In this document: one piece after another, positions 16,980 through 62,896 of the stretch
How the letters are laid out: each line of letters starts with the position of its first letter
Numbering within the stretch: the first letter of the stretch is position 1
NCBI GenBank assembly: GCA_029856155.1
Contig: JAHQWL010000040.1
Location: 64,001-128,000, forward strand
Direction of reading: 5' to 3'
Length of the DNA stretch: 64,000 nucleotides
From: Promethearchaeia archaeon
GTDB lineage: Archaea > Asgardarchaeota > Lokiarchaeia > Sigyniarchaeales > SOKP01
The notes under the pieces: model-generated
What the model saw: the letters and a program-made list of their open reading frames with translations, nothing else
Databases searched by the model: none
Told to the model about the DNA's origin: nothing
Position numbers and translations under genes: made by a program

Positions 16980-18392
16980 TTGAGTGATTTAGAAGGTTTA
17001 ACTAGAAGGTTAATGGAAAAGGGTTTTAGAAAGGAAGAAATTATTTTACGGCTTGTTAAGGAATATATGGATTTTAAAGACATTAAACAAGAGTCCGCAA
17101 CTCTTCTTGCTGAAGCGATTTATGAAGAATGTAAAAAGAGTGATATTAGGATTGTTTCAGATCCCTTTATGAGATATTTATTAGATATTAATAAGTCAAA
17201 TGTGACCATTGGAAAACAAGGAGTGGGTTGTAGGGGGTCAGGCGACTTTTTTGTTCATAAGCTCATTGCAGAGCTATCTGAAACAGAGAAGAGAGCATAC
17301 TTATCACCTAGCTCTTTAGATGATGCTGGTGCTGTGAGAATTAGTGATATTGAAGGTTTTAAAGCAGAAGATGATTTAATCATTGTATCTAAAATGGAAG
17401 GAATTCATAGTCGCTTAAGCGACTTTCCATTCTTGTGTGGTTTTCACGTAATTTCATGCAATACATTTGCGTGAAGCGTATCGAGAGCCGCACTACGAGA
17501 TCTCTATGTCAAAGGAGCAAAACCAATTTCCATTATGGTTGATGTTCATTTAGGAGATGATGCTGATGTTGGTAAACTCTTAGATTTTATGGCAGGAATT
17601 TCCACAATTGCAGAACTTACTGATGTACCTATAACGGCAGGCTCAACTTTAAGAATTGGAGGTGATATGGTTATTGGAAATAGACTTGTAGGAGGGATTG
17701 GGGCCGTTGGTATTGCTGAGGGTAAACTATTTGCTCGAAGGAATATAAAAAAAGGAGATAAAATACTTATGACTGAAGGTGCAGGAGGTGGAACAATCAC
17801 AACCACTGCAATTTATTCAGGAAACCATCATGTTGTTAAAGAAACGTTGAATATTAAATTTCTTGAAGCTTGCAAAGTAATCTTAAATTCAAATTATATA
17901 AATGAAATTCATGCAATGTGCGATGTGACGAACGGAGGGCTCAGAGGAGATCTCTATGAGATTAATTATGAAGCTAAATGTGGAGTAACAATTTATGAAC
18001 AAGAAGTAAGAAAACTTGTAAATCCGATTGTTCTTGAATTACTTGAAAAAGTATCGGTTGATTATTTAGGGGTTTCTTTAGACGCACTGCTAATTTATTG
18101 TTCTGAGGATGTTTCCAATAAAATAATTTCAGATTTAAGAGAAAATGGTATAAAATGTTCTGAAATTGGGTATGTTGATGATTCGAACCAAATAAAAATG
18201 ATTTTTGCGAAAGATAAACAAGAAAATATTTTGCCTCGATTTCGGGAATCAGCTTACACCAAAATAAAACAAGAAATAGGAGAACAAGCACCAGAATCTA
18301 AAGAAGAAATGGAAAATGATATACAAGTGACTGCTTCAAATGCGATAAAGAAACGAAATAAGATAATAAAATATATAAAAAGTCAAAACTAA
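16980..18392 (+). CDS. AIR synthase-related (PurM/HypE/SelD-fold) protein, two exons 16980-17451 and 17482-18392, 460 aa after splicing
   Basis: GVGCRGSGDFFVH, LDDAG, EGIHSRLSDFPFLCGFHV|TRAALRDL, DVHLGDDADVGK, GSTLRIGGDMVIG, DVTNGGLRGD; both halves in the same frame and joined by removing the BHB intron. Confidence 0.9.
17452..17481 (+). other. 30-nt bulge-helix-bulge intron in mRNA
   Basis: Outer helix 17435-17445/17483-17493, central ACGU/GCGU, bulges AAU and AUC, inner 9-bp stem with 5-nt loop; contains the in-frame UGA. Confidence 0.9.
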
Positions 18393-18398
18393 AGCTAA

Positions 18399-19226
18399 TT
18401 ATAAATCTAAATTGAGAACTTGATTCATAGAACCCGAGCGAAATCCTGCTAGATCTACCGTAACATAAATAAATCCAAGATTTCTTAACTTTTCTCTAAT
18501 TTTTTTCATATTTTGTTCAGTTAAGACTTTTGGGAGATCGCTTTGTAGAAATTCAATTCTCCCTAAATTGTTCTCATGTAATCTGACTCTCAACTGCTTT
18601 AAGTTGAATTTATTTTTTAGGAACCTCTCCGCTTCTCTTATCATCATTAATTTTTCTTCATTTATAATTTGCCCATATGGAATTCGAGAAGAGAAGCATG
18701 CCATTGATGGTTTAGATTGAACATATAAATTATAAAATCTGCAAATCTCTCTTATCTCATTCTTATTAATTTTGAAATCAATATATGGTGTAGATATTTT
18801 TAGCTCTTCTAGGGCTTGCATTCCAGGCCTATAATCCGAAAGATCATCAATGTTTGAACCATCTAATATTATATCAAAATGTTTTTTGTTTTTTATTTCA
18901 AGGATATCATTATATAATACAGTTTTACAAATATAGCATCTATTTGAAGGATTACATTGGAATTCTTCGTTTTTTAAGGGATCTCGTTCAAGGATCATAT
19001 GATTTATATCATAATTATTAGCAAATTGTATGGCCTCATTGATTTCTTCTTCAGGATAAAGAACTGAACTTTCAGTTATAAGAAGAGTGTCTCTAGCATA
19101 TTTTTTTGAGAGAAAGGCTAAAAGGGAACTATCAACACCCCCAGAAAAAGCTACTATTACCTTTTTTCCTTCCAAAAAAGATATGATATTCTTTAACTTT
19201 TTTTCTATTATATTAGGCAAATCCAT
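18399..19226 (-). CDS. larE: LarE-like ATP-dependent sulfur transferase (PP-loop)
   Basis: VAFSGGVDSS, NPSNRCYICK, DGSNIDDLSDYRPG, KPSMACFSSRIPYG, QLRVR, DLAGFRSGSMN. Confidence 0.88.
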   Translation of the reverse strand: MDLPNIIEKKLKNIISFLEGKKVIVAFSGGVDSSLLAFLSKKYARDTLLITESSVLYPEEEINEAIQFANNYDINHMILERDPLKNEEFQCNPSNRCYICKTVLYNDILEIKNKKHFDIILDGSNIDDLSDYRPGMQALEELKISTPYIDFKINKNEIREICRFYNLYVQSKPSMACFSSRIPYGQIINEEKLMMIREAERFLKNKFNLKQLRVRLHENNLGRIEFLQSDLPKVLTEQNMKKIREKLRNLGFIYVTVDLAGFRSGSMNQVLNLDL

Positions 19227-19412
19227 AATTAATTGTTATATTATTGAGGTTAATATCTAATAAAAGGAACCCAAGGTTTATAACTTCACAATTTTAATTG
19301 ATAAGAGTTTTAATAAAAATATTAATAATTTAGTATGAATCTTAAAAATAAAAGAATATACATGACGCTATTGCAATAAGCTTTATATATATAGAATATA
19401 ATAAGTTATAAT

Positions 19413-19550
19413 ATGGACAAAAAATGGTATATCTTAATTGGAATTATTATAGTAGTTATTATAATTATTATTGTTCTATTTGCTACCAAGGTTGTTTTGA
19501 TACCGGGTATAAACGACGGTGGTGGCGGTGGTGGTGGAATTTTTGGTTGA
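19413..19550 (+). CDS. 45-aa single-pass membrane microprotein with poly-Gly tail (below ORF-track cutoff)
   Basis: MDKKWYILIGIIIVVIIIIIVLFATKVVLIPGINDGGGGGGGIFG; TATA-like TTTATATA about 30 nt upstream; Gly run uses mixed synonymous codons. Confidence 0.65.
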   Translation: MDKKWYILIGIIIVVIIIIIVLFATKVVLIPGINDGGGGGGGIFG

Positions 19551-19598
19551 TAAAAGTAGATGATTATTAGATAATAGGAAAAAAAATTGATAAAGATA

Positions 19599-20888
19599 TC
19601 AATAAAAATCTGATTTAAATTTTTGAAGTTTACTTACTTTGTAAAAATTCCCAATCATGCTCCCTAATATCGCAATTATGATTCCGATTATTACCCAGAA
19701 ATATATAATATAAGCTAAATTATTGGTATCATATGGAATTTCAGTAATGAGTCTCCCTGAAAACAGAGAAATAGGAAATATCTCAGGATTGTTTAAAAGA
19801 ATTAATAATATTGGGATAAATGTTAATGAAAAAAGAGCTTCTAGTACTAACATCACTTGCTGTCCCGTATAATTCCTCACTCCAATAATTAAGCGAATTA
19901 AGTTAATTAATCCACCAATAACTATAAATAATCCAAATATCTTCAACCAATCCAAGAATTCTATCTTAAAAAGGCCTGGAATTTCAGCAAAAGGCTGAAT
20001 TATAATAATTAATCCAAAGATTAAACCCGCAATAGCTCCAAAAATTAATTCTCCTACTGTAACTGGCTGTTTTTTTCTTAATTCTCTTTTCATTTTGGCT
20101 GCTTCTTTTCTTTCCTCTCTACGTTGTTTAGCTCTTTCTAATTTTTCTTCTCTTCGCATTTTTGCTTCTAGTAGCTTTTGTTCTGTTCGTAATTGTGCCG
20201 TTGCTAGTTTTTCTTTTGTAACTGCTTTAATTTCAGCTAATTTTTCTTTTGTACGAATTCGGGCTCCTATAATAGTTTCTTTAGCTTTTTGTTTTGCTTC
20301 TTCTAATTTAATTTTTGTATATTCTCGAGTTTCTTGAAGTCCTTTTTCTGATATATGGAATGGGAATATTAAAGCCAATCGTGAAGGAATTACACCAAAA
20401 TCTTCGGGTAAAAATCCCTCCATAGAAAAATAAACAAATATGACTGTTATTACAAGAGCAGTAATCAAACAACCAATCCACATTCCTGAAAACATTTCTC
20501 CTAAGCTTATTAACCAATTTAAAGGTTGAAAAATAATCTTAAAAATTGAGACAATGATATTAATAGCAATGACAATTAGGAAGAAAAAAAGCATCGTTCT
20601 TATGTAAAAGTCAAAAATTTCTCCTGTTATATATAGTTTTGGTGTACCTCGGCTTTTGTATATTTTAGCAATACTTTCTGGAGTACCAATTTGTAAAAGT
20701 GCTTGCTGTATATCAAAATCAGATGGCTCACGTCCTTCAGCGATATTTCTTGCTTCATCTAGAATTTGAGTTTCTAAATCTTTTAAAATTTTATCAGTTT
20801 CTTCTTTTTTTAGTTTTAACCATTCAGGAAGTTTTTTATATACCTGAGTAAGATAGTTATTTATCATTTCATGCTCAGAATAGTTCAT
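19599..20888 (-). CDS. HAAS-domain membrane protein with internal coiled-coil insertion (paralog of 24306)
   Basis: INNYL..V.KKLPEWLK, IGTPESIAKIY..RGTPKLYIT, SMEGFLPEDF, multiple TM segments. Confidence 0.75.
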   Translation of the reverse strand: MNYSEHEMINNYLTQVYKKLPEWLKLKKEETDKILKDLETQILDEARNIAEGREPSDFDIQQALLQIGTPESIAKIYKSRGTPKLYITGEIFDFYIRTMLFFFLIVIAINIIVSIFKIIFQPLNWLISLGEMFSGMWIGCLITALVITVIFVYFSMEGFLPEDFGVIPSRLALIFPFHISEKGLQETREYTKIKLEEAKQKAKETIIGARIRTKEKLAEIKAVTKEKLATAQLRTEQKLLEAKMRREEKLERAKQRREERKEAAKMKRELRKKQPVTVGELIFGAIAGLIFGLIIIIQPFAEIPGLFKIEFLDWLKIFGLFIVIGGLINLIRLIIGVRNYTGQQVMLVLEALFSLTFIPILLILLNNPEIFPISLFSGRLITEIPYDTNNLAYIIYFWVIIGIIIAILGSMIGNFYKVSKLQKFKSDFY

Positions 20889-21023
20889 TTTAAATCCTCT
20901 AATTTTTAAATAAGATGATGAAAATTATGTTTTAACTAGTTTAAATCCTAGGTGTTTATTAAACTATTGGAGTCCATTTTTCAATAAGTAATCTCTAATT
21001 CAGGAAAAAGAAAAAAATCTGGT

Positions 21024-21803
21024 TTACCATTTAAAGTCAGGATTGAAAAAGAGAAGTGAATTTAACTTTTGTAAAGTAATGAAAACAATAACATAATACC
21101 ACGCAAGTGAGCTAAACATGAGTATCCACTCAAGAAACTGTCTTGTTAATGGTGCTGGGGATATTATGTATAAGATAGACGCAGTAGATGGTCCTAATAT
21201 CATGAAATACCCTACGACTTTCGGAAATATTCTTTTCCTTAATACAATTGCTAAACCCGTAAAAAATGCGCCGAAAGCAAATCCACCAAATGCTGATGTT
21301 GAGAAATAATAATGTAAATCAAATGGAGATCGTTCTAAACTAAATACTCCTACAAAAAACATACCAATAACACCAACAAGAAGACATACGACTCCTGTAT
21401 AACCAAATATTCTTCTAAATAAGATTGTATAATATTCCTTCTTTGAGTTGTCTAATTTATAATTTTGATGTGTACTATATAATCGACTTAAATTCAGAAT
21501 TAAAGGGACGATAAAGATTGCACTTAATATACATGTTAAGTCTAATATAAAGGGAGCGGGAGTATATATAAGAGATCCTAAATCACTTATCCAATTATAC
21601 CATACACTATATTCAAGAGAACCAAAATTAATTGCAACGATTAATCCCGTAATTAATCCTGGTAAAAATGTGATCAAACTAACATAAATTGAAATCTTAA
21701 CAATTTTTGGCTTAGTAAGCGTATCATATATATATTTACTGTTCTTTTTCATTTTTATGATAATCGGATCTATGAATTCCTTATATGAACTTTTTTGGCC
21801 CAT
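21024..21803 (-). CDS. DUF998/Frag1-like membrane protein
   Basis: YSVWYNWISDLGS, VGVFS, LHYYFS, FLEW; about 6 TM segments. Confidence 0.7.
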   Translation of the reverse strand: MGQKSSYKEFIDPIIIKMKKNSKYIYDTLTKPKIVKISIYVSLITFLPGLITGLIVAINFGSLEYSVWYNWISDLGSLIYTPAPFILDLTCILSAIFIVPLILNLSRLYSTHQNYKLDNSKKEYYTILFRRIFGYTGVVCLLVGVIGMFFVGVFSLERSPFDLHYYFSTSAFGGFAFGAFFTGLAIVLRKRIFPKVVGYFMILGPSTASILYIISPAPLTRQFLEWILMFSSLAWYYVIVFITLQKLNSLLFFNPDFKW

Positions 21804-22061
21804 ATTATAATACCCTTCTTATAATATTATTAACATTTTGTAAATTTAAAATTTATTCTACTCGGAAACTGAAATAAATTTTATCTTAACCCGTCTCCTT
21901 ATATATAAAATCAAATTACCGATATTTAATTGTTTTGATCTCCATAAACTAAATTGTTCTGATATTATTATTATTTAAAATTAGTATTGTATAAATAAAT
22001 ATATTAAATCATATACTGAATCTAAAGTAAGTTTCTCATATTAATAATTAATTGAAAGGCC

Positions 22062-23573
22062 TTAAGACTCAATTATTAGATTATTTTGTTTTGTTTCATT
22101 ATTATATTTAACCAAAAAAGTTTTTCCTACCAGTTCTTCTTTCTCTAGCTCTAAAAGAGTTTTTGAATCTGAGGGGAGCAGAGCAAAAGTACGTTCTCCA
22201 CTCTCTAACTTTCCCATTACGACACCCACTTCTGGGAAGCCCTTTCTGTTATATATTATTGAATATGCCTCTATTGTAAGATCTCCATTCGCTTTTTCAA
22301 TAGGTTCTGGCAGAATTTTCGCATTAATTTTTTGTTGTATATCATCATATTCATTTTCTTTCCAACCTATAGCAGGAGGTCTATTTCCATATATCCCAAT
22401 CGATTCTGATGTATTATATCCTCCATTTGCTAATATCATTATTTTCATCTTTGGATTTCTTTGAATTAATTCAATTGCAGAAACTATTGGATGCATTGAA
22501 TAACTACTGAAAGGTCCTCCAAAAAATGAAAGTCCTCCAGTTATTGTTAAATCACGTTGATCATCATCAGGAATTCCAATTTCTTGCCTAGCAATTTCAA
22601 CCATACAAGGAAAACAACTATAGAGATCAAAAGCATCTATATCCTCTAATTTTAGATCAGCTTGCTTTAATGCAAGTTGTGATGCTTTTCTTATTGCTGG
22701 TGAATCATATAACTGAGGACGTTGAGTCATATAAAAAATATTATGAAGATCAGCACCCCCCATTAGATAAACCCAAAATTTTCGATCAATCCCAAGATTT
22801 TGTGCAGTATTTTCATTTGTCATAATTATTGCTGCTGCTTGATCTACATAAAGGTTGGCAACCATACGTTTTGTATATGGATGACAAACTATGCGGTTAT
22901 CAGAACTAGGGGTAATTATTTCTTCTGCACTAAACTTATTTTGTATCCAAGCATAAGGATTTTGAGAAGCTATGCTAGAAAAACATTCATATCGCTTACC
23001 TATATGAACTGAGTGCTCTTTTAAACTTCTGCCGGAAGCAGCTCTTAGGGCAGTTTCGATCAGAGCATAGATATATGGGGGATTAGTAAGTTTATAACTG
23101 TTTTCAAACTTGCTTAGATAGAAAATAATTGCTTTCCGAGCTTTATTTGTTGCTTCTGGAGGTGGTTTTGGCCAATCCAAGATAATTTTATCCTTGTTAG
23201 CACGATATTTAGAATAAGATGCCTCTCCTCCGGCAATAAGAATAGCTTTACTTTCACCTAAAGAAATAGCTTTAGCAGCCTTATTGACTAATAATTGAGG
23301 TGTATTTCCACTTATAGGGGCGGTATAATATTGAACTGGTTTTATTCCAAGGAGTTGACTCAGTTTCCCTGGAGCATCCTCATAAATCCAACTAGAAATA
23401 GTTGACATATATATGGTGTCAATTATTTCTTTCAGACTATCTGCTTCTGAGATTATAAGGGCATTTTTACATGCTTTAGCAACTAAATTAAGTGGATCAA
23501 GCGGTATACGTTCATCTTTTTGTTGAGTAATTTGAGCGGCTCCAATGATAACAGGTGTATTTTTTTGATGCAT
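22062..23573 (-). CDS. Thiolase-like (acetyl-CoA acetyltransferase family) protein
   Basis: TPVIIGAAQ, GNTPQ, VDQAAAII, FDLYSCFP, LTITGGLSFFGGP..SYSMH, ANGG. Confidence 0.85.
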   Translation of the reverse strand: MHQKNTPVIIGAAQITQQKDERIPLDPLNLVAKACKNALIISEADSLKEIIDTIYMSTISSWIYEDAPGKLSQLLGIKPVQYYTAPISGNTPQLLVNKAAKAISLGESKAILIAGGEASYSKYRANKDKIILDWPKPPPEATNKARKAIIFYLSKFENSYKLTNPPYIYALIETALRAASGRSLKEHSVHIGKRYECFSSIASQNPYAWIQNKFSAEEIITPSSDNRIVCHPYTKRMVANLYVDQAAAIIMTNENTAQNLGIDRKFWVYLMGGADLHNIFYMTQRPQLYDSPAIRKASQLALKQADLKLEDIDAFDLYSCFPCMVEIARQEIGIPDDDQRDLTITGGLSFFGGPFSSYSMHPIVSAIELIQRNPKMKIMILANGGYNTSESIGIYGNRPPAIGWKENEYDDIQQKINAKILPEPIEKANGDLTIEAYSIIYNRKGFPEVGVVMGKLESGERTFALLPSDSKTLLELEKEELVGKTFLVKYNNETKQNNLIIES

Positions 23574-23680
23574 ATTTAGATTTAAGGGCTATTTCTAAAA
23601 ATTTAGGTTTTAATTAGTAAAAATTGGTGAAAATTTAAAGTTTTAAAAATTTTTACTTTGAAAAGAATAGTAAACTTTAA

Positions 23681-23715
23681 ATACTATACGTTGCATAGTA
23701 TCCATAGAATACTAT
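23681..23715. promoter_or_regulatory. Candidate PadR operator: ATACTAT-N7-ATAGTAT-N7-ATACTAT
   Basis: Three alternating perfect 7-mers overlapping TATA-like TTTAAATA (23676-23683), 40 nt upstream of padR. Confidence 0.65.
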
Positions 23716-23755
23716 ATTATTAAATAAATTAAAAATTAAACTAAAAATTGAAACA

Positions 23756-24313
23756 ATGGAGTTGAAAAATTTGATAAAACGTGTAAGAGAATTAGATTCA
23801 AATGCATTAATAGCTTCACAGGAGTTCAGAGATTATGTAGAAAGACAAGAAACTGAGATTAATAGAGGAATAAGTTCACTTTGTATATTATCAATAATTA
23901 TTCAAGCAGGTGAAGAAGGTTCACATGGGTATAAAATTCTGAAAAATTTAACAGACCAAACAAATGAAATGTTAGTTATAGAAGAAGGAACACTCTATCC
24001 TATATTAAGAAAGTTAGAAGTCGATAATATTATAAAATCTGAAAGAGAAGAATCAGGAAGAAGGAGAAAATTTTACAGAGTTACTGATTATGGTAAAAAA
24101 GTCTTTAATCACCTTGCTGGATTTTATAGTAAATTAACTGAAGCTATTGCACCTTTATATGATATAAGCATTAATTTAAAATCAGAAAAATATTTATTTT
24201 GTCCAATGTGTGCCAACAAAATCGAATTTTCAAATTTAGAAGTTAGGTTTTGTGATGTTTGTGGAAATAATATTGAAAAAGAATTAAAAGAAAGAGGTTT
24301 AAGAAATGAGTGA
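23756..24313 (+). CDS. PadR family regulator with C-terminal zinc ribbon
   Basis: HGYKILK.L...EEGTLYPILRKLE...RRRKFYRVT..G; CPMC...CDVC. Confidence 0.9.
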   Translation: MELKNLIKRVRELDSNALIASQEFRDYVERQETEINRGISSLCILSIIIQAGEEGSHGYKILKNLTDQTNEMLVIEEGTLYPILRKLEVDNIIKSEREESGRRRKFYRVTDYGKKVFNHLAGFYSKLTEAIAPLYDISINLKSEKYLFCPMCANKIEFSNLEVRFCDVCGNNIEKELKERGLRNE

Positions 24314-25361
24314 AAAAGAAATGACAAATTTAATAAAAGGATATTTAAAGGAAGTTAAATCAAAATTACCCGAATGGCTTAAAGATAAGAAGGAACATAA
24401 GGAAATCTTGGCTGAACTTGAAGAACATATAAGGAGTAAGGCAGAAGAGTTATCTGAAACGGGTCAACCTACATTGGGATCTGTTCAAATGGCAATTTCC
24501 CATATGGGGAGCCCACAAAACATTGCGAAGGAATATAAACGACGAGGAACTCCAAAAGTTTATATCACTAAGGAAATGTGGCCATCTTATCTCAAAGTAC
24601 TAGGAATTGTGTTTGCTGTAGTTATTGGAATTACACTTATCTCACAAATTGTAGATTTCATTTTTGGGAATGTTGATTTTTGGCAATTATTCGGAAATAT
24701 AATTCAGGGAATACAAATTGGATGCCTTTCAACCTTTGCGATAATTACTATAATTTTTGTAGCGTTATCGATGGAGGGTTATTTTCCTGAAGACTTTAAA
24801 TCAAAGAAAATTCGAGAGAAGGAAAAACAACAAATTGAATTAGCACGGGAACAAGGAATTCCGATTTCAGTAATAAAGAAAAGACCGGTAAAACCCTATA
24901 TTAAACCCATTGGAGTTATTATTGGTGGTGTAATCGCTATAATTGTAGGGATTTTCTTTATAGTACTACCAATTCCGGCTATAACAAGCTTGATTGAAGC
25001 GGAATTTCTATTATACCTACAATTCGCAGGTCTATTCATTTTAGTTGAAGGGATCTTGGATTTAAGCAGAGGATTAATAGGAAATAGGCAATTCTTTACT
25101 CATCAGATTCTTCATGGAATTACAATAGGTGTAAAACTCGCATCAATATCAGTAGTAATCTTCATGATGATGAGACCAGAGATATTTCCAATATTATTCG
25201 TTAACGAACCTGGGGACAACCTTATAAATATAGGAGTTGCTCCAGAATACTATGCTATTTTCAGAGGAATTGCCGGTGTAATTATAGCTGTAATAGTACT
25301 AACTACAATTGAAGACTTCTATAGAATTTATAAGGCTGAAAAATACAAATTTTTGAAATAA
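24306..25361 (+). CDS. HAAS-domain membrane protein (PadR partner)
   Basis: IKGYLKEVKSKLP..KEILAELEEHI..MGSPQNIAKEY, then TM helices; overlaps the padR stop. Confidence 0.8.
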   Translation: MSEKEMTNLIKGYLKEVKSKLPEWLKDKKEHKEILAELEEHIRSKAEELSETGQPTLGSVQMAISHMGSPQNIAKEYKRRGTPKVYITKEMWPSYLKVLGIVFAVVIGITLISQIVDFIFGNVDFWQLFGNIIQGIQIGCLSTFAIITIIFVALSMEGYFPEDFKSKKIREKEKQQIELAREQGIPISVIKKRPVKPYIKPIGVIIGGVIAIIVGIFFIVLPIPAITSLIEAEFLLYLQFAGLFILVEGILDLSRGLIGNRQFFTHQILHGITIGVKLASISVVIFMMMRPEIFPILFVNEPGDNLINIGVAPEYYAIFRGIAGVIIAVIVLTTIEDFYRIYKAEKYKFLK

Positions 25362-53881: not shown

Positions 53882-54751
53882 TTATAAATTATCTTCTTGT
53901 TGACTTCTTGTCTGACTTCTTGTCTGACTTCTTGTCTGACTTTGCTGTTCTTGACGGTACACAGGAACAATTTTTGAAGTAAAATCGTCTAGTGAGTATC
54001 GAAACTCATCTTCACTTGATATTTTACCTAACTCTAACAAAATTTGTCGTGCTAAAAGCCAGAATGCTAACCCTAATGCTTTTTTACCGCGATTATTAGC
54101 TGGGATCGCAAGATCTATGCCTGTAAGAGTGTCATCGGTATCAAATAGAGATACTACAGGAATTCGAGCTAATTTAGCTTCTCGTAAAACTACTTTATCT
54201 GCATGAGGATCTACAATCACTACAACACTTGCGTCTTTAATATAGGTATCAATGATAGGATTAGTAAGTGAGCCTGGAATAAACCTTGTAGTTATTGCTC
54301 TACATCCTAAGACTTCACAAAATTTTTTTACTGGTTCTTTCCCATATCGTCGAACTGAAGTAACAATGACTCTATCGCTTCCTTCTTCAACATATTTGCT
54401 TAAATATTTAGCAGCAATTTTAAGTCGTTCGTCGGTTTGAGTTAAATCAATAACATATAATCCATAATTAGTCTGCCTATAGATGAATCTTCGAGCATCT
54501 CCAGTTAACAATTTAGTTCCAATATGTATCCCACAACTTAAATAAAGCTGTTTTCTCTCCTCGTCTTTATCAATTAATTCTTCTTTTATCTCAATTCCTG
54601 CTTCTATATCGTTAGCGTCTAATAAATCAAGTTCCTCTTCTAAATCTAAATCTTCTTCAAAATCAATATCGAATTCTTCGCTAAAATCTTCTAGATCGTC
54701 GTTTTTTTTCGTACTTTCTGGTTCTTCAGTTTTCTTTTTCTTTCGAGCCAA
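53882..54751 (-). CDS. rps2: 30S ribosomal protein S2 (uS2) with acidic N-terminal extension
   Basis: YLSCGIHIGTK, RFIY...GLYVIDL, RFIPGSLTNP, DPHAD, DTD, IPANNRGKKALGL.FWLLAR. Confidence 0.95.
   Translation of the reverse strand: MARKKKKTEEPESTKKNDDLEDFSEEFDIDFEEDLDLEEELDLLDANDIEAGIEIKEELIDKDEERKQLYLSCGIHIGTKLLTGDARRFIYRQTNYGLYVIDLTQTDERLKIAAKYLSKYVEEGSDRVIVTSVRRYGKEPVKKFCEVLGCRAITTRFIPGSLTNPIIDTYIKDASVVVIVDPHADKVVLREAKLARIPVVSLFDTDDTLTGIDLAIPANNRGKKALGLAFWLLARQILLELGKISSEDEFRYSLDDFTSKIVPVYRQEQQSQTRSQTRSQTRSQQEDNL
53901..53942. repeat. 12-bp tandem repeat TGACTTCTTGTC x3.5, encoding (SQTR)n in the uS2 tail
   Basis: Directly visible, perfect copies. Confidence 0.9.
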
Positions 54752-54981
54752 ATTAGTAGCCTTACTTTTTTTTTCTGACGTTAATTAAATTAAAATATAT
54801 TTATGTCTAACGAATTTATGAATATATTATTGAATACATAATAACTTTAATATTTTATTGAGCAGATTTTTCTAAACCCTTAAGAACTAAAGTTTTAATA
54901 TAGCAAAATGATTTTAATTATTAATATAACTTATTGAATATAACTATAATATATTCATTTAGATCGGTTTTGGTTTTAGTC

Positions 54982-55467
54982 ATGACTTCCTATCGATTAA
55001 TTATTGGCATCATTGTTGGTATAGTATTTAGCTTCTTTACTGTTTTTTTCTTTAACATGACGGTTATTTTAAACCAAATTCAATTATATGCAAAAACTGA
55101 CATAATAAGGATAGCTTCTTTATTAGCTGGAGCAAATTTTAATTTTAATATGATTTCATATATTACAGGAACACCAACTATCCTAGGTTTTTTTGCACCT
55201 GAAATTTTAGCATGGATTTTCATTGGTTATATCACAGGCTCAATAGCAAAAGGTTTAAGAAGAGGGACAATAGCCAGTTCATTAGTTGTTGTAATAGTAT
55301 TGTTGATTTGGATCATACTAAGCATCTTTTCTCAGGTGGATTTAATGGCTTTATTCCAAGGAACTCAATTAACTGAAACGCTAGGGGGAATAATTAGTGC
55401 ATTTTTAGGAGTCTTAATAGGAGGAGTAGCTGGTGGATTAATTAGTGGTCCTTATGAGGAGTTCTAA
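54982..55467 (+). CDS. Hypothetical 4-TM membrane protein
   Basis: Gly-rich hydrophobic helices; ATG at 54982. Confidence 0.7.
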   Translation: MTSYRLIIGIIVGIVFSFFTVFFFNMTVILNQIQLYAKTDIIRIASLLAGANFNFNMISYITGTPTILGFFAPEILAWIFIGYITGSIAKGLRRGTIASSLVVVIVLLIWIILSIFSQVDLMALFQGTQLTETLGGIISAFLGVLIGGVAGGLISGPYEEF

Positions 55468-55639
55468 TAAAAATCTATTAGCAACCACATCTTTTCTTAC
55501 AAATTAGAAACTATATTCTATTATTAATGATCTATATATATTTATATTTTAAAGATTGCAGATATCTTGGTTAGAGTAATTATTTACGGATTTTTATAAT
55601 AACTCAAACTTAAAGTAAATTGGTTAATTATAAAAAATA

Positions 55640-56176
55640 ATGGTGAATAAAGAAGATATTTTGCCCGATCGAGAGTTTGCATTAGATCTATTAAGAAGAT
55701 TGAAAACCCCACTCTCAGTTAGACGCCATTCTGAAAAAGTTGCTGATAAAGCCATAGAAATAGCAAATAAAATAAAAAAAGCAAAATTAGATTTAAATTT
55801 GATTGAAATCGGGGCTTTATTGCATGATATTGGGAGATCTAAAACCCATGGTTTTGACCATGCATTAATAGGGGGTAAAATCTTAAGACAGAAAGGTTTT
55901 TCAGATAAACTCGCGAGAATCTGTGAAACTCATATTTTAGGTGGTTTAGATGAACAAGATGCTAAAAAAGTAGGATTACCTGAAAAAGATTATTTACCTA
56001 TTACTTTAGAAGAAAAAATAATATGTTTAGCAGATAAACATATGGCTGGTACGAGAGAAGTTTCAATCCAAGCCAGATTTAATAGATGGTTTCAAAAATA
56101 TGGAAGAAGTAAGATCTTGTTAAAATCAAAAAAAAGAATCGAAACTATTCAAAAAGAAATTGAAGAATTAATGTAG
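55640..56176 (+). CDS. HD-domain (HDIG) protein, archaeal TIGR00295-like
   Basis: RHS..V, GALLHDIGRSKTH..DHA..G, ETHILGG, DYLP.TLEEKII.LADK. Confidence 0.88.
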   Translation: MVNKEDILPDREFALDLLRRLKTPLSVRRHSEKVADKAIEIANKIKKAKLDLNLIEIGALLHDIGRSKTHGFDHALIGGKILRQKGFSDKLARICETHILGGLDEQDAKKVGLPEKDYLPITLEEKIICLADKHMAGTREVSIQARFNRWFQKYGRSKILLKSKKRIETIQKEIEELM

Positions 56177-56208
56177 CGAGTTATTTTAATGACTTGTTCT
56201 ATGGTTAA

Positions 56209-57519
56209 TTAACTAATATCGCAAAATAATTCTTGGTTTTTACATAAAAGCTCATAATCTTTATCTAATGAAAAGATTACATTTCGGATTATTAAACATG
56301 CATCCAATAATACTTGAGGGTCCACTTTCTCAGGTGTATCTACTTTATTATGAGTATATTTACCTCCCGCTCTTGTAACAATATCAACAGAATCATATCC
56401 CCTTAAATGAAATGGAACAGAATCAGTATGTGCTCCAGTAGACAGATGGAATCCTTTAATCTTCACGTTTTCTTCCATTGCTGCCTTATCTAGGTATTTA
56501 CTAAGTAAAGGAGCTATTTTTTTCCTAGGTAAAACCCCATACGATTTTAAATATTCTACCTGATTTTTTTGTTCATGAGCACAAGAAATCATATCTAAGT
56601 TAATTTGAAATACTCTACCCTTTATAAATTCGTCTTGATGGTCATTTACAAAAATCCTAGACCCCATTGTTCCTAGTTCTTCAGCAGAGAATTGACAGAA
56701 CCAAATATTGAAGTTATCAAGTGTGTTTTCTTTAAAAAACTCACTTAATTCAAACACTACTGCCATTCCTGAAGCATTATCTAAAGCTCCGGGTGAATTA
56801 TTAGAAGTATTTAAAAACATTAAAAATACATTTGAAATTGAGATTAGTATGGTAAAACTCCAGATACCACTCCCTATCACCAAGAGGTTTATATCAATTA
56901 TCGTATATGCATGAATAAATAAAATAATAAAAAAACCTCCAAGAAAAATTCCACCATATAACCACACTCTATATAAAAAGACTCTCCAATAAGTTTTGAA
57001 TGATTGAGATTTAGAATCTAAGTGAGCAGAAATAATAATATTACCCGCAGTATCTGCTGGCAAATTTTTTGCTGGCAATTTTATAACGACATTTGTTGCT
57101 GAAATAGTCTTTCCATAATATTCTCCCCAAAATCCCGGATGTTCAGGATGTTGTAAACCTTTAATAATTAAAAAAAATACGATTATCATAATTACGCATA
57201 TGATAATTGTAAAAAGTAAATTTATATAAGTAAACATTAAGATAAAAAGAGAAAATGTTAGGTTAATTACCATTATTAATTTTATAAGTGTAGTCGAGTA
57301 GAAATCAGAAAATTTAAAAGTTTTTTTTTGGATTTGTTGTTCATTAAATCCAATATTTTTAAAAGTCTTCTCTGTTAATTTAACAGCTTTTATTTCTCCG
57401 CTTGTTCCAGCTAGGCGTGGAAAACTGAAACTCTTAACATAATTAAATAAACGATCGACTTTAAACGAAAGATCTTTAATAGAATTCCCAGTTTTCAACT
57501 TTTTTAATAAAACTATCAA
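56209..57519 (-). CDS. Membrane M28-family peptidase-like protein (paralog of 44722)
   Basis: FSFPRLAGT, AHLDSKSQ, GALDNASG, SAEELGTMGS, NLDM, HTD, H..VDT. Confidence 0.82.
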   Translation of the reverse strand: MIVLLKKLKTGNSIKDLSFKVDRLFNYVKSFSFPRLAGTSGEIKAVKLTEKTFKNIGFNEQQIQKKTFKFSDFYSTTLIKLIMVINLTFSLFILMFTYINLLFTIIICVIMIIVFFLIIKGLQHPEHPGFWGEYYGKTISATNVVIKLPAKNLPADTAGNIIISAHLDSKSQSFKTYWRVFLYRVWLYGGIFLGGFFIILFIHAYTIIDINLLVIGSGIWSFTILISISNVFLMFLNTSNNSPGALDNASGMAVVFELSEFFKENTLDNFNIWFCQFSAEELGTMGSRIFVNDHQDEFIKGRVFQINLDMISCAHEQKNQVEYLKSYGVLPRKKIAPLLSKYLDKAAMEENVKIKGFHLSTGAHTDSVPFHLRGYDSVDIVTRAGGKYTHNKVDTPEKVDPQVLLDACLIIRNVIFSLDKDYELLCKNQELFCDIS

Positions 57520-57588
57520 TTATGATTTGAAATTTTCAATTTACATTATAGTATTGAAAATAAATGTTTTGTTACTTTTTTTTATAAT

Positions 57589-58194
57589 TTAGCTCAAATC
57601 TTTTAGTTTATCAAATATAATTTTCTGAATCTTTTCTTGAACAAATTCTATAATATCATCAGAATTAACAATAGAATAGCCTTCTTGTTTAGCACGGCTG
57701 AGATAAAGATTTCTTACTTTATCTAAGAACGAGTTATCCTCAAATTTTTCCAAAACATCTTCTTCTTTCCTTGCTAATGCCGTTTTTGGATCGATATCTA
57801 AAATAATTGTTATATCGGGTAATTCTACAAATTTATTAATTTCTATAACCCATTCAACAGAGATTTTATCTGATTGTAACGATTGATATACTATAGAAGA
57901 TTCCAAATAACGATCGGATATAACGATATACCCTTCTTCTAGTTTTTTCTTGATTTCGTTATGATAATGCAAGTTTCTATCAGTAGCAAATAATAACGCA
58001 TCAGTAGCAGGTGGGACATTTTTATCTTTTAAATATTTCCTGACTAATTTCCCAATATCGCTTTCAGACGGTTCCATCGTTAAATAAACTTTAAACCCCT
58101 TGCTTTCTAAAAAACCTTTAAGAAGGTGACTATGAGTGCTTGTGCCTGATCCATCAATCCCTTCTAATGCGATAAATAAAGATTTTTGCTTCAA
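57589..58194 (-). CDS. tmk: Thymidylate kinase
   Basis: FIALEGIDGSG, EP, LLFATDR..H, VISDRY..SSIVYQ, PDITIILDI. Confidence 0.92.
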   Translation of the reverse strand: MKQKSLFIALEGIDGSGTSTHSHLLKGFLESKGFKVYLTMEPSESDIGKLVRKYLKDKNVPPATDALLFATDRNLHYHNEIKKKLEEGYIVISDRYLESSIVYQSLQSDKISVEWVIEINKFVELPDITIILDIDPKTALARKEEDVLEKFEDNSFLDKVRNLYLSRAKQEGYSIVNSDDIIEFVQEKIQKIIFDKLKDLS

Positions 58195-58395
58195 ATTAAA
58201 TCAAAAAATAAATTATATTTTAGCTATAATTCAACTAAGATTTTGTAAATTATTATCAATAAGAACTTATTTGTTTTATTTTTAATTAACTCATTTTATT
58301 AAATTTTTAACAAATTAAAGCACAAGGGAATATTATAATAAATTCTTATAGAATCCTACCACAAAAATTAAAATAATTAAATATTCTTATTTAAA

Positions 58396-58785
58396 ATGAG
58401 AGCAATGCGTAAACATAATAAATTCGCATATTGCAAGAATTGTGAGAAAGAAATTTTAAGACCTAAAAGAAAATCCATAGAGAATATGTACATTAATATC
58501 TGGATTCTAGCATTTATTTCTTCATTAGGTTTTGCAATAGTTCCCTTTCTCATTTATCGTTATGTAATTTTAAAAAGAAATATTTGCCCAAATTGCCAAA
58601 ATCAACTAAGTATTTATAATTCTCATGAAGAGATTCCAGATCCAAAAGCCCAAATTAGCCGAATACTTCAAAAAATTGAAGATGAAAAAAAAGAATATGA
58701 CAAGGTTTACTGTCCATATTGTAAGCAAGAAATATTAAAAGAATTAAAAAACTGTCCAAGTTGTGGTGCACACCTAATAGAATAA
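58396..58785 (+). CDS. Zinc-ribbon membrane protein (CxxC-TM-CxxC plus C-terminal zinc ribbon)
   Basis: CKNC...hydrophobic hairpin...CPNC; CPYC...CPSC. Confidence 0.75.
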   Translation: MRAMRKHNKFAYCKNCEKEILRPKRKSIENMYINIWILAFISSLGFAIVPFLIYRYVILKRNICPNCQNQLSIYNSHEEIPDPKAQISRILQKIEDEKKEYDKVYCPYCKQEILKELKNCPSCGAHLIE

Positions 58786-58861
58786 AAATTTAAATTAATA
58801 TTTATATTCATAATCTTAAAGCCTAAAGGAATAAAATAAAAATCAAATATAATTACGTAAA

Positions 58862-59239
58862 ATGACAACTACAAATCCTACAGGATATTGCAGCCGCTGT
58901 AACCAAGAAGTTTTGTTGAAACGTGAAGAGATTGATACTTGTCTCGCAATAGTATTGTTGATTTTTACAGCGGGAATTGGTTTACTAATTTACCTCGCAA
59001 TCTATTACAGTAAACCTGAAGATAGATGCGTTCATTGTGGAACAAAAATTACTGTTTTTCAAACTCCAAGCCCCTATACTTATCAACCTCAACCTCAACA
59101 ACCATCATATTCAGCACCTTTAAATATATCCGAAGAAATAACAGGCTCTAGACCTAATTTTTGTTCTCTTTGTGGAGAAAAATTAGACTCAGGTATAAGT
59201 TATTGTCCGAACTGCGGGAGTAAAATTTCTGAAAATTAG
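58862..59239 (+). CDS. Zinc-ribbon membrane protein (paralog)
   Basis: CSRC...LAIVLLIFTAGIGLLIYLAIY...CVHC; CSLC...CPNC. Confidence 0.8.
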   Translation: MTTTNPTGYCSRCNQEVLLKREEIDTCLAIVLLIFTAGIGLLIYLAIYYSKPEDRCVHCGTKITVFQTPSPYTYQPQPQQPSYSAPLNISEEITGSRPNFCSLCGEKLDSGISYCPNCGSKISEN

Positions 59240-59371
59240 TTTTTTTATGATTTTTTACTTAGTACAGACGTTTTTGCATACTAATTTTAAAAATTGGACT
59301 CCCATTTTTTTTAATTCAATTAAAATCTTCTTCTAATTAAATAAAAATAAAAAAATTTGGGATGATAAAAA

Positions 59372-59737
59372 ATGTATTGTCCAAAATGTAATATGAATGT
59401 TTATACAAAAAAGAATGAATTTAATATTGGCTTGGCGATTATTTTAGCTATTTTCACAGGGGGTATTGGCCTATTGATTTATGTTGCGATCTATTTAGAT
59501 AAGGAACATAAACCTCGTTGCATTCATTGTGATTCAGTATGTTATGATCAAAAAGAAACTGACCAACAAAGTTCAAATTATCAAGTAATAAACGTTTCTC
59601 ATCAACCAGAGAGTCCAAAAGTTAGTGGAAAATCGCAAAAAATTGAAGAGAAATCATTCTTTTGTTATAATTGTGGAACTGAATTAGACAAAAGTGAGAA
59701 TGCTAAATTCTGTGCACTTTGTGGAAGTTCAATATAA
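59372..59737 (+). CDS. Zinc-ribbon membrane protein (paralog)
   Basis: CPKC...LAIILAIFTGGIGLLIYVAIY...CIHC; CYNC...CALC. Confidence 0.8.
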   Translation: MYCPKCNMNVYTKKNEFNIGLAIILAIFTGGIGLLIYVAIYLDKEHKPRCIHCDSVCYDQKETDQQSSNYQVINVSHQPESPKVSGKSQKIEEKSFFCYNCGTELDKSENAKFCALCGSSI

Positions 59738-59821
59738 TAATTTTTTTAATTTTTTTTTCTTTTAAAATCTTTTTAAATTTATCAATTTTATTGCTATAAT
59801 TAATCAAAATTTTAACCTTTA

Positions 59822-60691
59822 TTAGCTCTCCCCAAGAAATTCAATTACTTTTTTTCTCATTAAACTAGTATTAGGTTTTTTGTTTGTCCACCATTCAAAT
59901 GCTAAAGCTCCCTGATTAACTAACATATCTAAGCCTCCTAGTGTTTTGCATCCTTTCTGAGCAGCATCAGTTATTAATTTAGTTTTTAATGGGTTGTACA
60001 CTACATCATAGACAATTAAATCTTCATGCAAAAATTCTTCAGGTATTGGTGATATATTTACATTTGGATACATACCAACTGGAGTTGCATTAATAATAAT
60101 ATCGGCTTTTTTAGATTCATCTTTTAAAACATTATTACTCATTTGCTTCGCTTCAACATTTATCCCACTATATTTTTTAATTTGATTAGAAAGTTTCAAT
60201 GCTCGTTTTTCAGTTCTATTTACTATAACTAATTTGTTAACTTGTTCTGCCATTATATAGCTTAAAGCTCTTGCTGCTCCACCAGCTCCTAATAATAAGA
60301 CATTTTTTCCTGAAATTTTGTACCCTGCATTTAATAGTGCTCTCATAGCTCCTTCCGCATCTGTATTTTTCCCAGTTAAGTACCCCTTATCATTTTTTAT
60401 TGCATTTACGGCTCCAATTTTCTTTGTAATAGGATCAATTTCATCTAAATATTTCATTATTTTTTGCTTAAAAGGAATTGTCACATTAATTCCGATGATA
60501 TTAAATGTTTTAATTCCCTTCACAGCAAGCTTCAAATTAGAAGGAAAAATATTGAATGCTAAATAAATATAATCAAGGTGTAATTCACGTATCGCAGTAT
60601 TATGCATAATTGGACTCATAGAATGTTCAATTGGATACCCAATAATACATAGAACTTTTGTATGAGCAGTAACAAAATCCTTGTCGATCAT
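59822..60691 (-). CDS. aroE: Shikimate dehydrogenase
   Basis: GYPIEHSMSP.MHN, NVTIPFK, GAVN, NTD, GAGGAA, NATPVGM, GLDMLVNQG. Confidence 0.95.
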   Translation of the reverse strand: MIDKDFVTAHTKVLCIIGYPIEHSMSPIMHNTAIRELHLDYIYLAFNIFPSNLKLAVKGIKTFNIIGINVTIPFKQKIMKYLDEIDPITKKIGAVNAIKNDKGYLTGKNTDAEGAMRALLNAGYKISGKNVLLLGAGGAARALSYIMAEQVNKLVIVNRTEKRALKLSNQIKKYSGINVEAKQMSNNVLKDESKKADIIINATPVGMYPNVNISPIPEEFLHEDLIVYDVVYNPLKTKLITDAAQKGCKTLGGLDMLVNQGALAFEWWTNKKPNTSLMRKKVIEFLGES

Positions 60692-60716
60692 ATTAATTAT
60701 TTAAGATATATTTGCC

Positions 60717-61337
60717 TTAATCTATTATCTCATCATCAAAATGGCTCTCAAATTCTTTTGAGCGAACCATCGTAACTTGTCTATATCTTTCAAAGCGATT
60801 CTCCCATTTTGCATCAGCATTAAACGCAATCTTAGCAAATTCAATTGATTTTATTGCTTTAATCAATCCTTCTTTCTCTTTAGGACTATAAATTCTAATA
60901 GGATCTCCAATAGCTATGTTATTTGGAGGAATAAAAGAATTTGCGGGAACAACTGTATTTGCATGAACAAAAGCCCCAACGGCTATTGCGGCACCAGATT
61001 GAACAATAGCACCTTGTAAAACAGTGGCCCCCGTTGCTACATATGAATTAGACTCAACCTCACAACCAATAAGAGTTGATTGTGGTGAGACAAAAACATG
61101 AGCCCCAATTATTACTGGATGCTCGCGATTTCCCGATGCTGTAGCTCTAAGAACAGCATTTTCACATATTATTGAGCATTCACCAATTTCGATCTTAGAA
61201 CCTTCTGAATCAAGGACAGAACCGTACATTATCCTTGAATCTTTTCCAATCAAAATATTACCTATAACTGCTGCTGTGGGTGCTATAAATACAGAGGAAT
61301 CAAATTTAGGTTCGAAACCCCGATGTTTTATTATAAT
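60717..61337 (-). CDS. Gamma carbonic anhydrase-like hexapeptide-repeat protein; probable ATT start
   Basis: Frame extends to ATT at 61337 (xIIKHRGFEPKFDSSVFIAPTAAVIGNILIG), preceded by GGTGA whose TGA is an in-frame stop. Confidence 0.85.
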   Translation of the reverse strand: MIIKHRGFEPKFDSSVFIAPTAAVIGNILIGKDSRIMYGSVLDSEGSKIEIGECSIICENAVLRATASGNREHPVIIGAHVFVSPQSTLIGCEVESNSYVATGATVLQGAIVQSGAAIAVGAFVHANTVVPANSFIPPNNIAIGDPIRIYSPKEKEGLIKAIKSIEFAKIAFNADAKWENRFERYRQVTMVRSKEFESHFDDEIID

Positions 61338-61497
61338 TCTCTTTCACCTTATATTATTTTCAACGGATTTTGATTACTTACTAATTTTTTATTATTTAAG
61401 AGTTTTATAGGAAAATTTGATAATATTCAAATTAAAACTATTTAATAAGTTAAAAATTAAAATAATTAATAATTCAAACTAATAAAATGATATTAGA

Positions 61498-62061
61498 ATG
61501 AAAAAAGTAGACTTAAGTCCAAAAATCTCAACTTTTCCTATGCCCGTGGCAGTTATTTCTGTAGGAACAGGCGAAGACGCTAATTTAATAACATTAGCAT
61601 ATGTAGGAAAAGTTTGCTTTGAACCTCCTATTATTGCTATTTCTATACAACCTAAGCGACATTCTTTTCATTTAATTGAAAAACACAGTGAATTTGTTAT
61701 TAATTATCCGACCCTAGACCAATTAAGAGAAACTGATTATTGTGGAACACGTTCTGGAAGAGAAGTTAATAAATGGAAAAAATTAAATCTAACAAAGCAA
61801 GATGCTTCTGTTGTAAAAATTCCAATGGTAAAAGAGTTTCCATGGAACATGGAATGTAAAGTTATTAAAAGAATAGAACTTGGTTCACATATATGTTATT
61901 TTGGTAAAGTTGTTGCTACACATTCTGATCCTATCTATGTAAAAAATGAAGCTTTGGATCCAGGAAAATTTAACTTTCCCGCATATATATCAGGTAACTA
62001 CCTTGAATTAAAAAAAGGTGTTTTAGAAAAACATGGATTTACATTAGAATCATCATTCTAA
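61498..62061 (+). CDS. Flavin reductase (flavoredoxin-like)
   Basis: PMPVAVIS, NLITLA, EFVINYP, DYCG..SGR..NK, P.NMECKV, GSH. Confidence 0.88.
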   Translation: MKKVDLSPKISTFPMPVAVISVGTGEDANLITLAYVGKVCFEPPIIAISIQPKRHSFHLIEKHSEFVINYPTLDQLRETDYCGTRSGREVNKWKKLNLTKQDASVVKIPMVKEFPWNMECKVIKRIELGSHICYFGKVVATHSDPIYVKNEALDPGKFNFPAYISGNYLELKKGVLEKHGFTLESSF

Positions 62062-62107
62062 AAAGACATGTATAAAGCACTCAATAAAATAATGAATGTA
62101 ATTTAAT

Positions 62108-62638
62108 ATGCTTAAAGATTCCATTGCTCTTATTGGTTTTATGGCTACTGGAAAAACAACCGTAGGCAAAGCGTTAACTAAATATCTTGGTGATGATTAT
62201 CAATTTATTGAAACAGATCAGCTTATAATTCAAAAAATTGGTAAAACAATTCCACAAATATTTGATGAAGATGGAGAAAGCAAATTTAGAGAATATGAAA
62301 GTTCTGTGTGTGAGAAAGTTTCTGAATTACACAAAGTAGTGATTTCATGTGGGGGTGGCGTAGTTTTGAATAAGAGTAATATTGACAATTTAAAGAAAAA
62401 CAGTTATATTGTCTTATTAAAAGCTAATTTAGAGGAAATTTATAAGAGATCAAAAAAAAACGGAGTAGAAATAAGGCCAATCATTAATAAAGAAGATTTT
62501 AAAAGAGAAATAAAAAAAATTCAAAATATTCGAAAATCCAATTATGAAGAAGCGGCAGAAATTGTTATTGATACAACTAAAAAAAAAGTGAAGCAAATTG
62601 TAAGAGAGATTGTTATAAAAACCCACTTAAAAACCTAA
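62108..62638 (+). CDS. aroK: Shikimate kinase, bacterial AroK type
   Basis: LIGFMATGKTTVG, D..I, IF..DGE..FR..E, VISCGGG, RP. Confidence 0.92.
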   Translation: MLKDSIALIGFMATGKTTVGKALTKYLGDDYQFIETDQLIIQKIGKTIPQIFDEDGESKFREYESSVCEKVSELHKVVISCGGGVVLNKSNIDNLKKNSYIVLLKANLEEIYKRSKKNGVEIRPIINKEDFKREIKKIQNIRKSNYEEAAEIVIDTTKKKVKQIVREIVIKTHLKT

Positions 62639-62696
62639 ATTTATATAAATATAATCTACAAATTATGTAAAATAATTTAAATAGAGTTAGGCTAAT

Positions 62697-62896
62697 ATGG
62701 CTGATTATAAAAGAGTAAAATGTCCTAAATGCGGAAATGATAATCCACGGATGCTTCATGAAGAACCGGATAAGAGTATTGTACTTTACTATAGTATAAG
62801 TATCGCTTTTTCAGCATACTGCTAACGCAGGGTACTCCGGTTTATGCAAAAAACATGAAGTGTGGAGGATGCGGAAATCTTTTTAAAAAGGAGTAA
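62697..62896 (+). CDS. Intron-split 56-aa zinc-ribbon protein (exons 62697-62797 and 62827-62896)
   Basis: Spliced product MADYKRVKCPKCGNDNPRMLHEEPDKSIVLYYSMQGTPVYAKNMKCGGCGNLFKKE; the two CxxCG knuckles are in different frames in the DNA. Confidence 0.85.
62798..62826 (+). other. 29-nt bulge-helix-bulge (relaxed outer helix) intron in mRNA
   Basis: Central UAGU/GCUA, bulges AUA and ACG, inner hairpin AGUAU-C-GCU/AGC-AUACU, exon pairings GUACUUU/AGGGUAC and AACCGGA/UCCGGUU. Confidence 0.85.

Follow-up and report, generated by a model that had tools for sequence, protein, structure and literature searches.

Excision of an intron at a motif of the bulge-helix-bulge (BHB) kind in crenarchaeal cbf5 was reportedly described by Watanabe in 2002 and by Yoshinari in 2006, and the BHB introns and processing stems of archaeal tRNA and rRNA are said to have been treated by Marck and Grosjean in 2003. 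We describe here two archaeal genes, one for an AIR-synthase-related protein (AIRS) and one for a small zinc-ribbon protein, which lie 45 kb apart in a window of 64,000 nucleotides (nt), positions 64001-128000 of contig C44 (4.6% of the genome studied, G000). Each is interrupted by a short hairpin insert, and both inserts are very probably BHB introns of the mRNA, spliced by the tRNA splicing endonuclease EndA and the RNA ligase RtcB. In cbf5, the intron interrupts the pre-mRNA of a pseudouridine synthase (Yokobori 2009, PMC2738675). A literature search combining Asgard, BHB, protein-coding and mRNA found archaeal BHB splicing of a coding sequence documented only for crenarchaeal cbf5, and mRNAs do not figure in a preprint of 2026 that deals with the tRNA introns of Asgard archaea. 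Judged from the sequence, our data support a known kind of intron, the BHB intron of pre-mRNA, in a new lineage and on a new scale that would involve many genes, essential ones included.

The source genome is a metagenome-assembled genome (MAG) of 4.10 Mb in 104 contigs, with 30% G+C and 5.7% contamination, whose tRNA genes carry many introns; scanning the window against Rfam and for tRNAs gave no match. The initial annotation had described the DNA as Asgard-like, and the closest public relatives are indeed MAGs of the Promethearchaeota/Promethearchaeia, Asgard archaea of the Loki type. It had also placed hairpin inserts of 29-30 nt with stop codons in two genes, and both inserts were found where it had located them (Table 1).

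These introns resemble that of cbf5 in several ways: they are short and lie within coding sequence, their BHB is built partly from exon, the EndA is hetero-oligomeric, presumably here too an (alpha-beta)2 enzyme, gain and loss are lineage-specific, and gene callers mispredict the interrupted gene. The cbf5 intron concerns a single gene of a single phylum, as against seven or more unrelated genes, with up to two introns each, in this one Asgard genome. Unlike in cbf5, the intron lengths cluster at 27-37 nt, and members of one genus differ in which introns they have; experiments have shown that cbf5 is spliced, while the splicing proposed here is deduced. The hosts are AIRS-related and zinc-ribbon genes of Promethearchaeota, not cbf5 of Desulfurococcales or Sulfolobales, so that the mechanism would be of the same class and the introns different ones. 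With the BHB introns of tRNA and rRNA (PMC5829648) they share the central helix of 4 bp and the predicted cut after the second bulge nucleotide; of the two 3-nt bulges on opposite strands, intron 1 has both and intron 2 the 5′ one. The likeness extends to the relaxed HBh′ and bulge-helix-loop (BHL) forms that are taken by (alpha-beta)2 enzymes (PMC5829648), and intron 2 has such a form. They differ from the tRNA and rRNA introns in having an open reading frame (ORF) as host: the exon half of the motif has to encode protein as well, and synonymous sites in both exons covary in a way that preserves the outer helix.

On the + strand, the frame from 16980 to 18392 encodes an AIR-synthase-related protein of the PurM superfamily, is spanned by the Pfam profiles AIRS and AIRS_C, and contains a single in-frame TGA, at 17472-74. 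The minimum free energy (MFE) fold of positions 17430-17500 reaches −30 kcal/mol (z = −5.4; none of 200 shuffled sequences folded as well) and forms a strict hBHBh′ motif around this stop codon. It comprises an outer helix of 11 bp made of exon (17435-45/17483-93), the central helix ACGU 17446-49/GCGU 17476-79, two bulges of 3 nt each (5′ AAU 17450-52 and 3′ AUC 17480-82), and an internal stem of 9 bp (17453-61/17467-75) closed by a loop of 5 nt. If each bulge is cut behind its second nucleotide, exactly 30 nt would be removed and A joined to CG, which gives ...GFHV-T-RAALRDLYVKGAKP... in one continuous frame.

This prediction was compared with orthologs. Among the AIRS genes from 40 relatives, 28 have exactly one codon between GFHV and RA.LRD, which is ACN (Thr) in 25 and GCG or GCA (Ala) in three. 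At 61 further Promethearchaeota loci, the single codon was found in 49, an insert of 30 nt in nine and one of 29 nt in three, always at the same site; when both sets are combined, 72 of the 77 insert-free orthologs carry the Thr codon. The insert occurs in 12 other Promethearchaeota genomes, where 29-nt and 30-nt versions coexist, and the version of the same-genus genome G024 is a frame-shifting one of 29 nt. Across the 13 carriers, 98.7% of the alignment cells are paired, four pairs have changes on both sides (three in the intron stem and one in the exon helix), and the covariation score was reached by none of 500 shuffles. Sliding the partners by 1-3 columns reduced pairing to 29-54%, and the central helix ACGU/GCGU is invariant in all 13 genomes. 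Removal of the insert restored one open frame of 463-482 amino acids (aa) in 12 of the 12 other carriers. The ratio of nonsynonymous to synonymous substitution rates (dN/dS) was computed by ungapped comparison, which indels made invalid for six of these twelve; in the six gap-free comparisons that were used, dN/dS is 0.06-0.13 at dS >1.

All through the genus the zinc-ribbon gene follows shikimate kinase on the downstream side, and its break involves a change of frame. The ATG frame that opens at 62697 (MADYKRVKCPKCG...) runs for 42 codons before the TAA at 62823-25, and the C-terminal half of the protein, which holds the second CxxC and extends to 62896, is read in a different frame from exon 1. 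Three elements here are canonical, the central helix UAGU 62792-95/GCUA 62821-24, the 5′ bulge AUA 62796-98 and the intron hairpin at 62799-62820, and an exon helix of 7 bp (62781-87/62829-35) lies beyond a 4×4 internal loop. The same cut rule as for intron 1 would take out 29 nt and join AU to G, yielding a protein of 56 aa that reads ...LYYS-M-QGTPVYAKNMKCGGCGNLFKKE. Of 21 same-genus orthologs with both exons, 17 have the 29-nt insert and four have none, and all four of the latter read ...LYYS-atg(M)-QGTPVY; besides G000, the insert is present in 16 Promethearchaeota genomes. In both genes, then, the canonical cut rule arrives at precisely the ancestral residue: the Thr of intron 1 and the Met of intron 2 match the insert-free orthologs. 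With the cuts one base off, the residues would be Ser and Thr.

Intron 2 is likewise marked by covariation. In its 17 carriers 94.4% of the cells are paired, 9 of the 19 pairs show compensatory change, and none of 500 shuffles reached the covariation score. Seven of the compensatory pairs are in the intron stem and one is in the exon helix. The central helix is paired in 100% of cases over the 17 genomes, and its UAGU/GCUA form here covaries with CAGU/GCUG elsewhere. One covarying pair (columns 6/56) joins position 3 of a Val codon in exon 1 with position 3 of a Gly codon that lies some 50 nt away in exon 2; the coding sequence itself is kept in line with the motif. For introns 1 and 2 together, slid controls were paired at 23-54%.

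Intact zinc-ribbon proteins of 55-57 aa are common in the public Promethearchaeota data. The carriers, by comparison, are annotated as stubs of 42 aa (P0039-P0043) that end in what reads as translation into the intron, ...LYYSIGKTISVHR, which is a direct sign that these records are mis-annotated. A search of public proteins for the predicted spliced zinc-ribbon product returned no exact match.

Some members of the genus (G016 and G017) have a second intron in the zinc-ribbon gene, after ...PVY. In G016 (L036, ~1205-1331, − strand) a second insert of 31 nt lies 15 nt downstream of the first. The motifs of the two are near-identical, CAGU AU^A ... GCUG AG^A in the second and CAGU AU^U ... GCUG AG^G in the first (cuts marked ^), which suggests that the second arose by local duplication. 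The second insert of G017 (L052, ~3040-3075) is 30 nt long and contains a TAA. Of the public proteins, P0024, P0038 and P0041 are cut short where the second insert sits, and P0033 carries an in-frame insertion of 12 aa at that point.

Table 1. Predicted introns, motifs and exons of the two window genes (window coordinates), followed by further inserts of G000 (contig coordinates); ^ marks a junction.
Feature	Position	Strand	Detail	Evidence
AIRS exon 1	16980..17451	+	ends ...GFHV plus A, first base of the Thr codon	translation, Pfam, orthologs
Predicted BHB intron 1, 30 nt	17452..17481	+	in-frame TGA 17472-74	fold; precise stretch missing in 28 + 49 orthologs; recovered in G000/G023 comparison
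AIRS exon 2	17482..18392	+	CG completes ACG = Thr, then RAALRDLYVKGAKP...	
Complete hBHBh′ motif, intron 1	17435..17493	+		MFE; pairing and covariation in 13 genomes
Zinc-ribbon exon 1 (CPKC...)	62697..62797	+	ends ...LYYS plus AU	intact public family members of 55-57 aa
Predicted BHB/BHL intron 2, 29 nt, frame-shifting	62798..62826	+	read-through stop TAA 62823-25	orthologs
Zinc-ribbon exon 2	62827..62896	+	G completes AUG = Met, then QGTPVYAKNMKCGGCGNLFKKE and stop	
Relaxed BHB, intron 2	62781..62835	+		pairing and covariation in 17 genomes
AMP/thymidine-phosphorylase-like insert, 30 nt	C98:57026-57055		DKHS^TGGVPGNK	one ORF in G023
Proteasome alpha insert, 29 nt	C1:10074-10102			one ORF in G023
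Roadblock/LC7 insert, 30 nt	C72:106002-106031		central helix ACGU/GCGU, as in intron 1	
Zn-ribbon/LOR gene insert, 27 nt (weaker case)	C71:124479-124505			one ORF in G023
uL11 inserts, 37 and 36 nt	C44:135957-135993 and C44:136013-136048			one ORF in G023

Further inserts were sought by comparing all ORFs of G000 in both directions with those of G023, a complete relative genome of 2.27 Mb, and by retaining extra ORF-breaking stretches of G000 where G023 has one ORF. This recovered the AIRS insert together with inserts in five other genes (Table 1). When spliced junction peptides were matched to uninterrupted G023 ORFs, identities were 92-98%, with six true matches against one decoy; one of the six is a tRNA intron, which served as a built-in positive control. 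The cut rule used for introns 1 and 2 is also correct in the AMP phosphorylase, proteasome alpha and Roadblock genes and in uL11 intron 2. The Pfam profiles run on across the breaks (Proteasome positions 1-96 before and 95-189 after, Robl_LC7 2-37 before and 42-90 after). A 25-nt candidate at oriented position 152398 of C44 (−) and extra stretches of 42-140 nt on C14, C21, C82, C83 and C87 were rejected, having no convincing BHB.

The uL11 gene (C44:135903-136470), about 8 kb past the end of the window and probably the only copy in the genome, has two inserts separated by an exon of 19 nt (ASGGPPI). Without them it encodes 164 aa, the same length as in relatives; among public proteins there was no exact match to the predicted spliced form, the best having 90% identity. 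The uL11 motifs are of a relaxed form, and intron 2 combines the central helix GCCU/AGGU with a 3′ bulge AAA, an exon helix of 8 bp and extra unpaired bases opposite the 5′ bulge. A dodecin-like gene (C71:27574-27800, +), for which G023 has no ortholog, reads MTVYKSIQLVG-T-SDKNWADAV once an insert of 31 nt is taken out. The motif of this insert, UUGG AA^A ... CCAA AA^C, has a bulged U in the intron stem and was missed by the descriptor used for the genome-wide scans below.

In all, about eight inserts in seven genes of the 4.1 Mb have been verified, intron 2 included, and the genome total is probably in the tens, not above 100. The initial annotation had extrapolated from two introns per 64 kb to many per genome: further inserts do exist, but that slope was too steep. 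The features it gave as shared, a NNGU/GCNN central helix, four bulges that begin with A and outer helices supplied by exon, hold for introns 1 and 2; the NNGU/GCNN form is not general in the genome, where other introns have UAGC/GUUA, CUCA/UGAG and AAGG/CCUU.

The genome encodes the enzymes that such splicing would use. Two EndA paralogs (PF01974/TIGR00324, ~200 aa) were found at C13:4082-4306 and C52:107149-107397, one nearest to catalytic alpha subunits (3p1z_B, 3ajv_B, 2cv8) from the heterotetrameric enzymes of Crenarchaeota and the other to the M. jannaschii enzyme, and there is one RtcB (C83:60896-62203). Asgard archaea have an (alpha-beta)2 EndA whose L1 insert gives it a broad specificity for relaxed motifs (PMC5829648), which the relaxed 3′ site of intron 2 fits. 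In the mechanism that we propose, the outer helix of the exons, the 5′ central strand, the intron hairpin and the 3′ central strand of the transcript would fold into an EndA substrate, and the two-paralog enzyme, presumably (alpha-beta)2, would cut each bulge or loop behind its second nucleotide. RtcB would then join the 2′,3′-cyclic-phosphate and 5′-OH ends and would probably also circularise the excised 29-30-mer. Only the spliced mRNA would give the full protein. On unspliced mRNA, translation would halt at the intron stop, in the 29-nt insert at its TAA with the downstream half left in another frame. A dependence of these mRNAs on the tRNA endonuclease, as first proposed from the letters of the window, is strongly supported by the comparative evidence, through the exact junction prediction, conservation and covariation, purifying selection on the exons and the presence of two EndA and one RtcB; the many introns in the tRNA genes also speak for it.

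Both inserts are stable hairpins, and since hairpins stimulate bypassing and frameshifting, the stops could instead be overcome on the ribosome, by a hop of the T4 gene 60 type, by a −1 frameshift or by reading TGA as selenocysteine (Sec). A tRNA-SeC gene was detected by ARAGORN on the same contig outside the window (C44:153205-153297, − strand), the organism probably uses selenocysteine, and the exon-2 frame of the zinc-ribbon gene is open from 62795, so that a ribosome slipping by −1 within the insert would go on to make an unbroken product. We nevertheless regard recoding as very improbable. A GUA-to-GUA hop in intron 1 would produce V-S-R where V-T-R is conserved, and in intron 2 no pair of codons matches for take-off and landing. 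Its only U-run is in a loop that varies among orthologs (GCTATTTCAGC, GCTAATTCAGC, GCAATATCAGC), and hence there is no conserved slippery site. Sec read-through cannot rescue the frame-shifting 29-nt version of intron 1 in three carriers. Moreover, the 9-10 residues that would be added are missing from insert-free orthologs (77 AIRS orthologs lack the ten codons), and covariation upholds the central and outer helices spanning the insert, neither of which a recoding signal needs.

It could also be that EndA cuts at these motifs with no productive rejoining, the BHB being a site of processing or decay and the genes acting as two polypeptides or being nonfunctional. According to a Haloferax study (PMC7714728), BHB motifs there serve processing outside coding regions and include a substrate in a 5′ untranslated region, and no ligated junction was observed here. 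This explanation is improbable in our view: the inserts sit inside single compact domains (the AIRS N-domain at GFHV-T-RAALRD, Proteasome, Robl_LC7), no start codon is conserved in the exon-2 pieces, RtcB is present, and the ancestral codon is exactly restored in 6 of 6 genes, which is not expected of a mere cleavage site. Inactivating insertions in decaying pseudogenes, or errors of sequencing and assembly, would agree with public annotations in which the zinc-ribbon gene is represented by nothing but its truncated exon-1 product of 42 aa, and with the fragmented, partly contaminated state of the source MAG. Against this, the same sites are occupied in 12 and 16 independently assembled genomes in which the sequence varies and the pairing is kept, and the flanking exons, with dS saturated, remain open and subject to purifying selection. 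Among the genes with inserts are also a proteasome alpha gene and what is probably the sole uL11 gene. We give decay or artefact hardly any credence.

Several observations weigh against splicing of these mRNAs. The 3′ cut site of intron 2 falls within the 4×4 internal loop ACUA 62788-91/ACGC 62825-28 and not in a strict 3-nt bulge, and the MFE of intron 2 taken alone is not significant (z = −0.5). The uL11 and dodecin inserts stray further still from the canonical motif. Cleavage and ligation, their efficiency and their competition with coupled translation are deduced from comparative evidence and not from RNA, and how splicing would outrun coupled translation is left without explanation. An excess of frame-restoring BHB motifs over controls, which the initial annotation had put forward as a test, did not appear either. 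The relaxed descriptor (central helix of 4 bp, 5′ bulge of 3 nt, intron stem of 4 bp or more, L 15-117), combined with a filter for restored ORFs, matched the genome 550,455 times, and at every threshold the frame-restoring counts equalled those of the +1 and +2 decoys (for example, 13,041 versus 13,344 and 13,313). We judge this null result to be powerless and not a refutation, because junctions between neighbouring same-strand genes, which yield ~10^3-10^4 false restorations, swamp the signal and because real introns such as those of uL11 and dodecin break the descriptor. Strict motifs gave a weak excess of frame-restoring cases (31, versus 15 and 13 decoys).

Introns common to G000 and G023, sought by BHB junction peptides with long open flanks, numbered 26 against 15 and 19 decoys, no clear excess; the same search without the requirement for long open flanks was discarded, being swamped by conserved off-frame translations. 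As for stop-free introns of length 3n, a BHB was found in 5 of 238 in-frame insertions (5-40 aa, G000 versus G023), compared with 7.8 expected from displaced controls. Since BHBs are no commoner than in these controls, hidden introns of this type are not evident.

A parallel with the HAC1 and XBP1 mRNAs, the latter having an intron of 26 nt, had been drawn at the outset. As in that IRE1 system, a small non-spliceosomal mRNA intron would be excised by a structure-recognising endonuclease and, as in metazoa, ligated by RtcB, with a change of frame. IRE1, however, is a kinase-RNase that cuts twin stem-loops (7-nt) in a single regulated target as a stress switch, while the motif here is a BHB of the EndA type; the resemblance is one of logic only and not of membership. 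A regulatory switch like that of HAC1/XBP1 would be pure speculation by analogy. The dependence of protein expression on RtcB would nonetheless become testable in archaea. In the papers searched, archaeal genes are treated as uninterrupted, and here at least seven unrelated genes would need tRNA-splicing enzymes for their expression. Gene callers truncate or miss such genes, as the 42-aa zinc-ribbon stubs in public records illustrate. The introns also raise the question of how, in the lineage closest to eukaryotes, splicing is reconciled with translation that is coupled to transcription. They make the gain, loss and possible mobility of introns accessible to study in a setting that involves neither a spliceosome nor a homing endonuclease.

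Hints of mobility come from the near-identical second intron of G016, from short cores shared by three introns and from the clustering of introns, four of the eight verified ones being on C44 within 75 kb. The uL11 intron 2 shares AAGCGTATCG (10 nt) with intron 1 (window 17473-17483) and GTATCGCTTTT (11 nt) with intron 2 (window 62800-62810), so that the introns, taken initially to be otherwise unrelated in sequence, are nearly but not entirely so. Two pairs sharing at least 10 nt were seen in none of 300 shuffles, the shared 11-mer occurs five times in the whole genome, and all three introns are found in a 55-kb stretch of the same contig. A mobile and expanding population of BHB mini-introns that gates dozens of genes, ribosomal and proteasome genes included, through EndA/RtcB capacity would agree with these hints, but we hold it to be unlikely. 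All five 30-nt introns from the G000/G023 comparison carry a stop (5/5), which is only suggestive, the chance expectation being ~0.06. G023 in turn has two 30-nt BHB inserts of its own, in genes that are uninterrupted in G000 (oriented positions 1930036, −, and 1382049, +), so that, within the genus, either genome can have an intron that the other lacks. One of the two has the central helix UGCA/GGCA with an A-G mismatch, like the second intron of G017.

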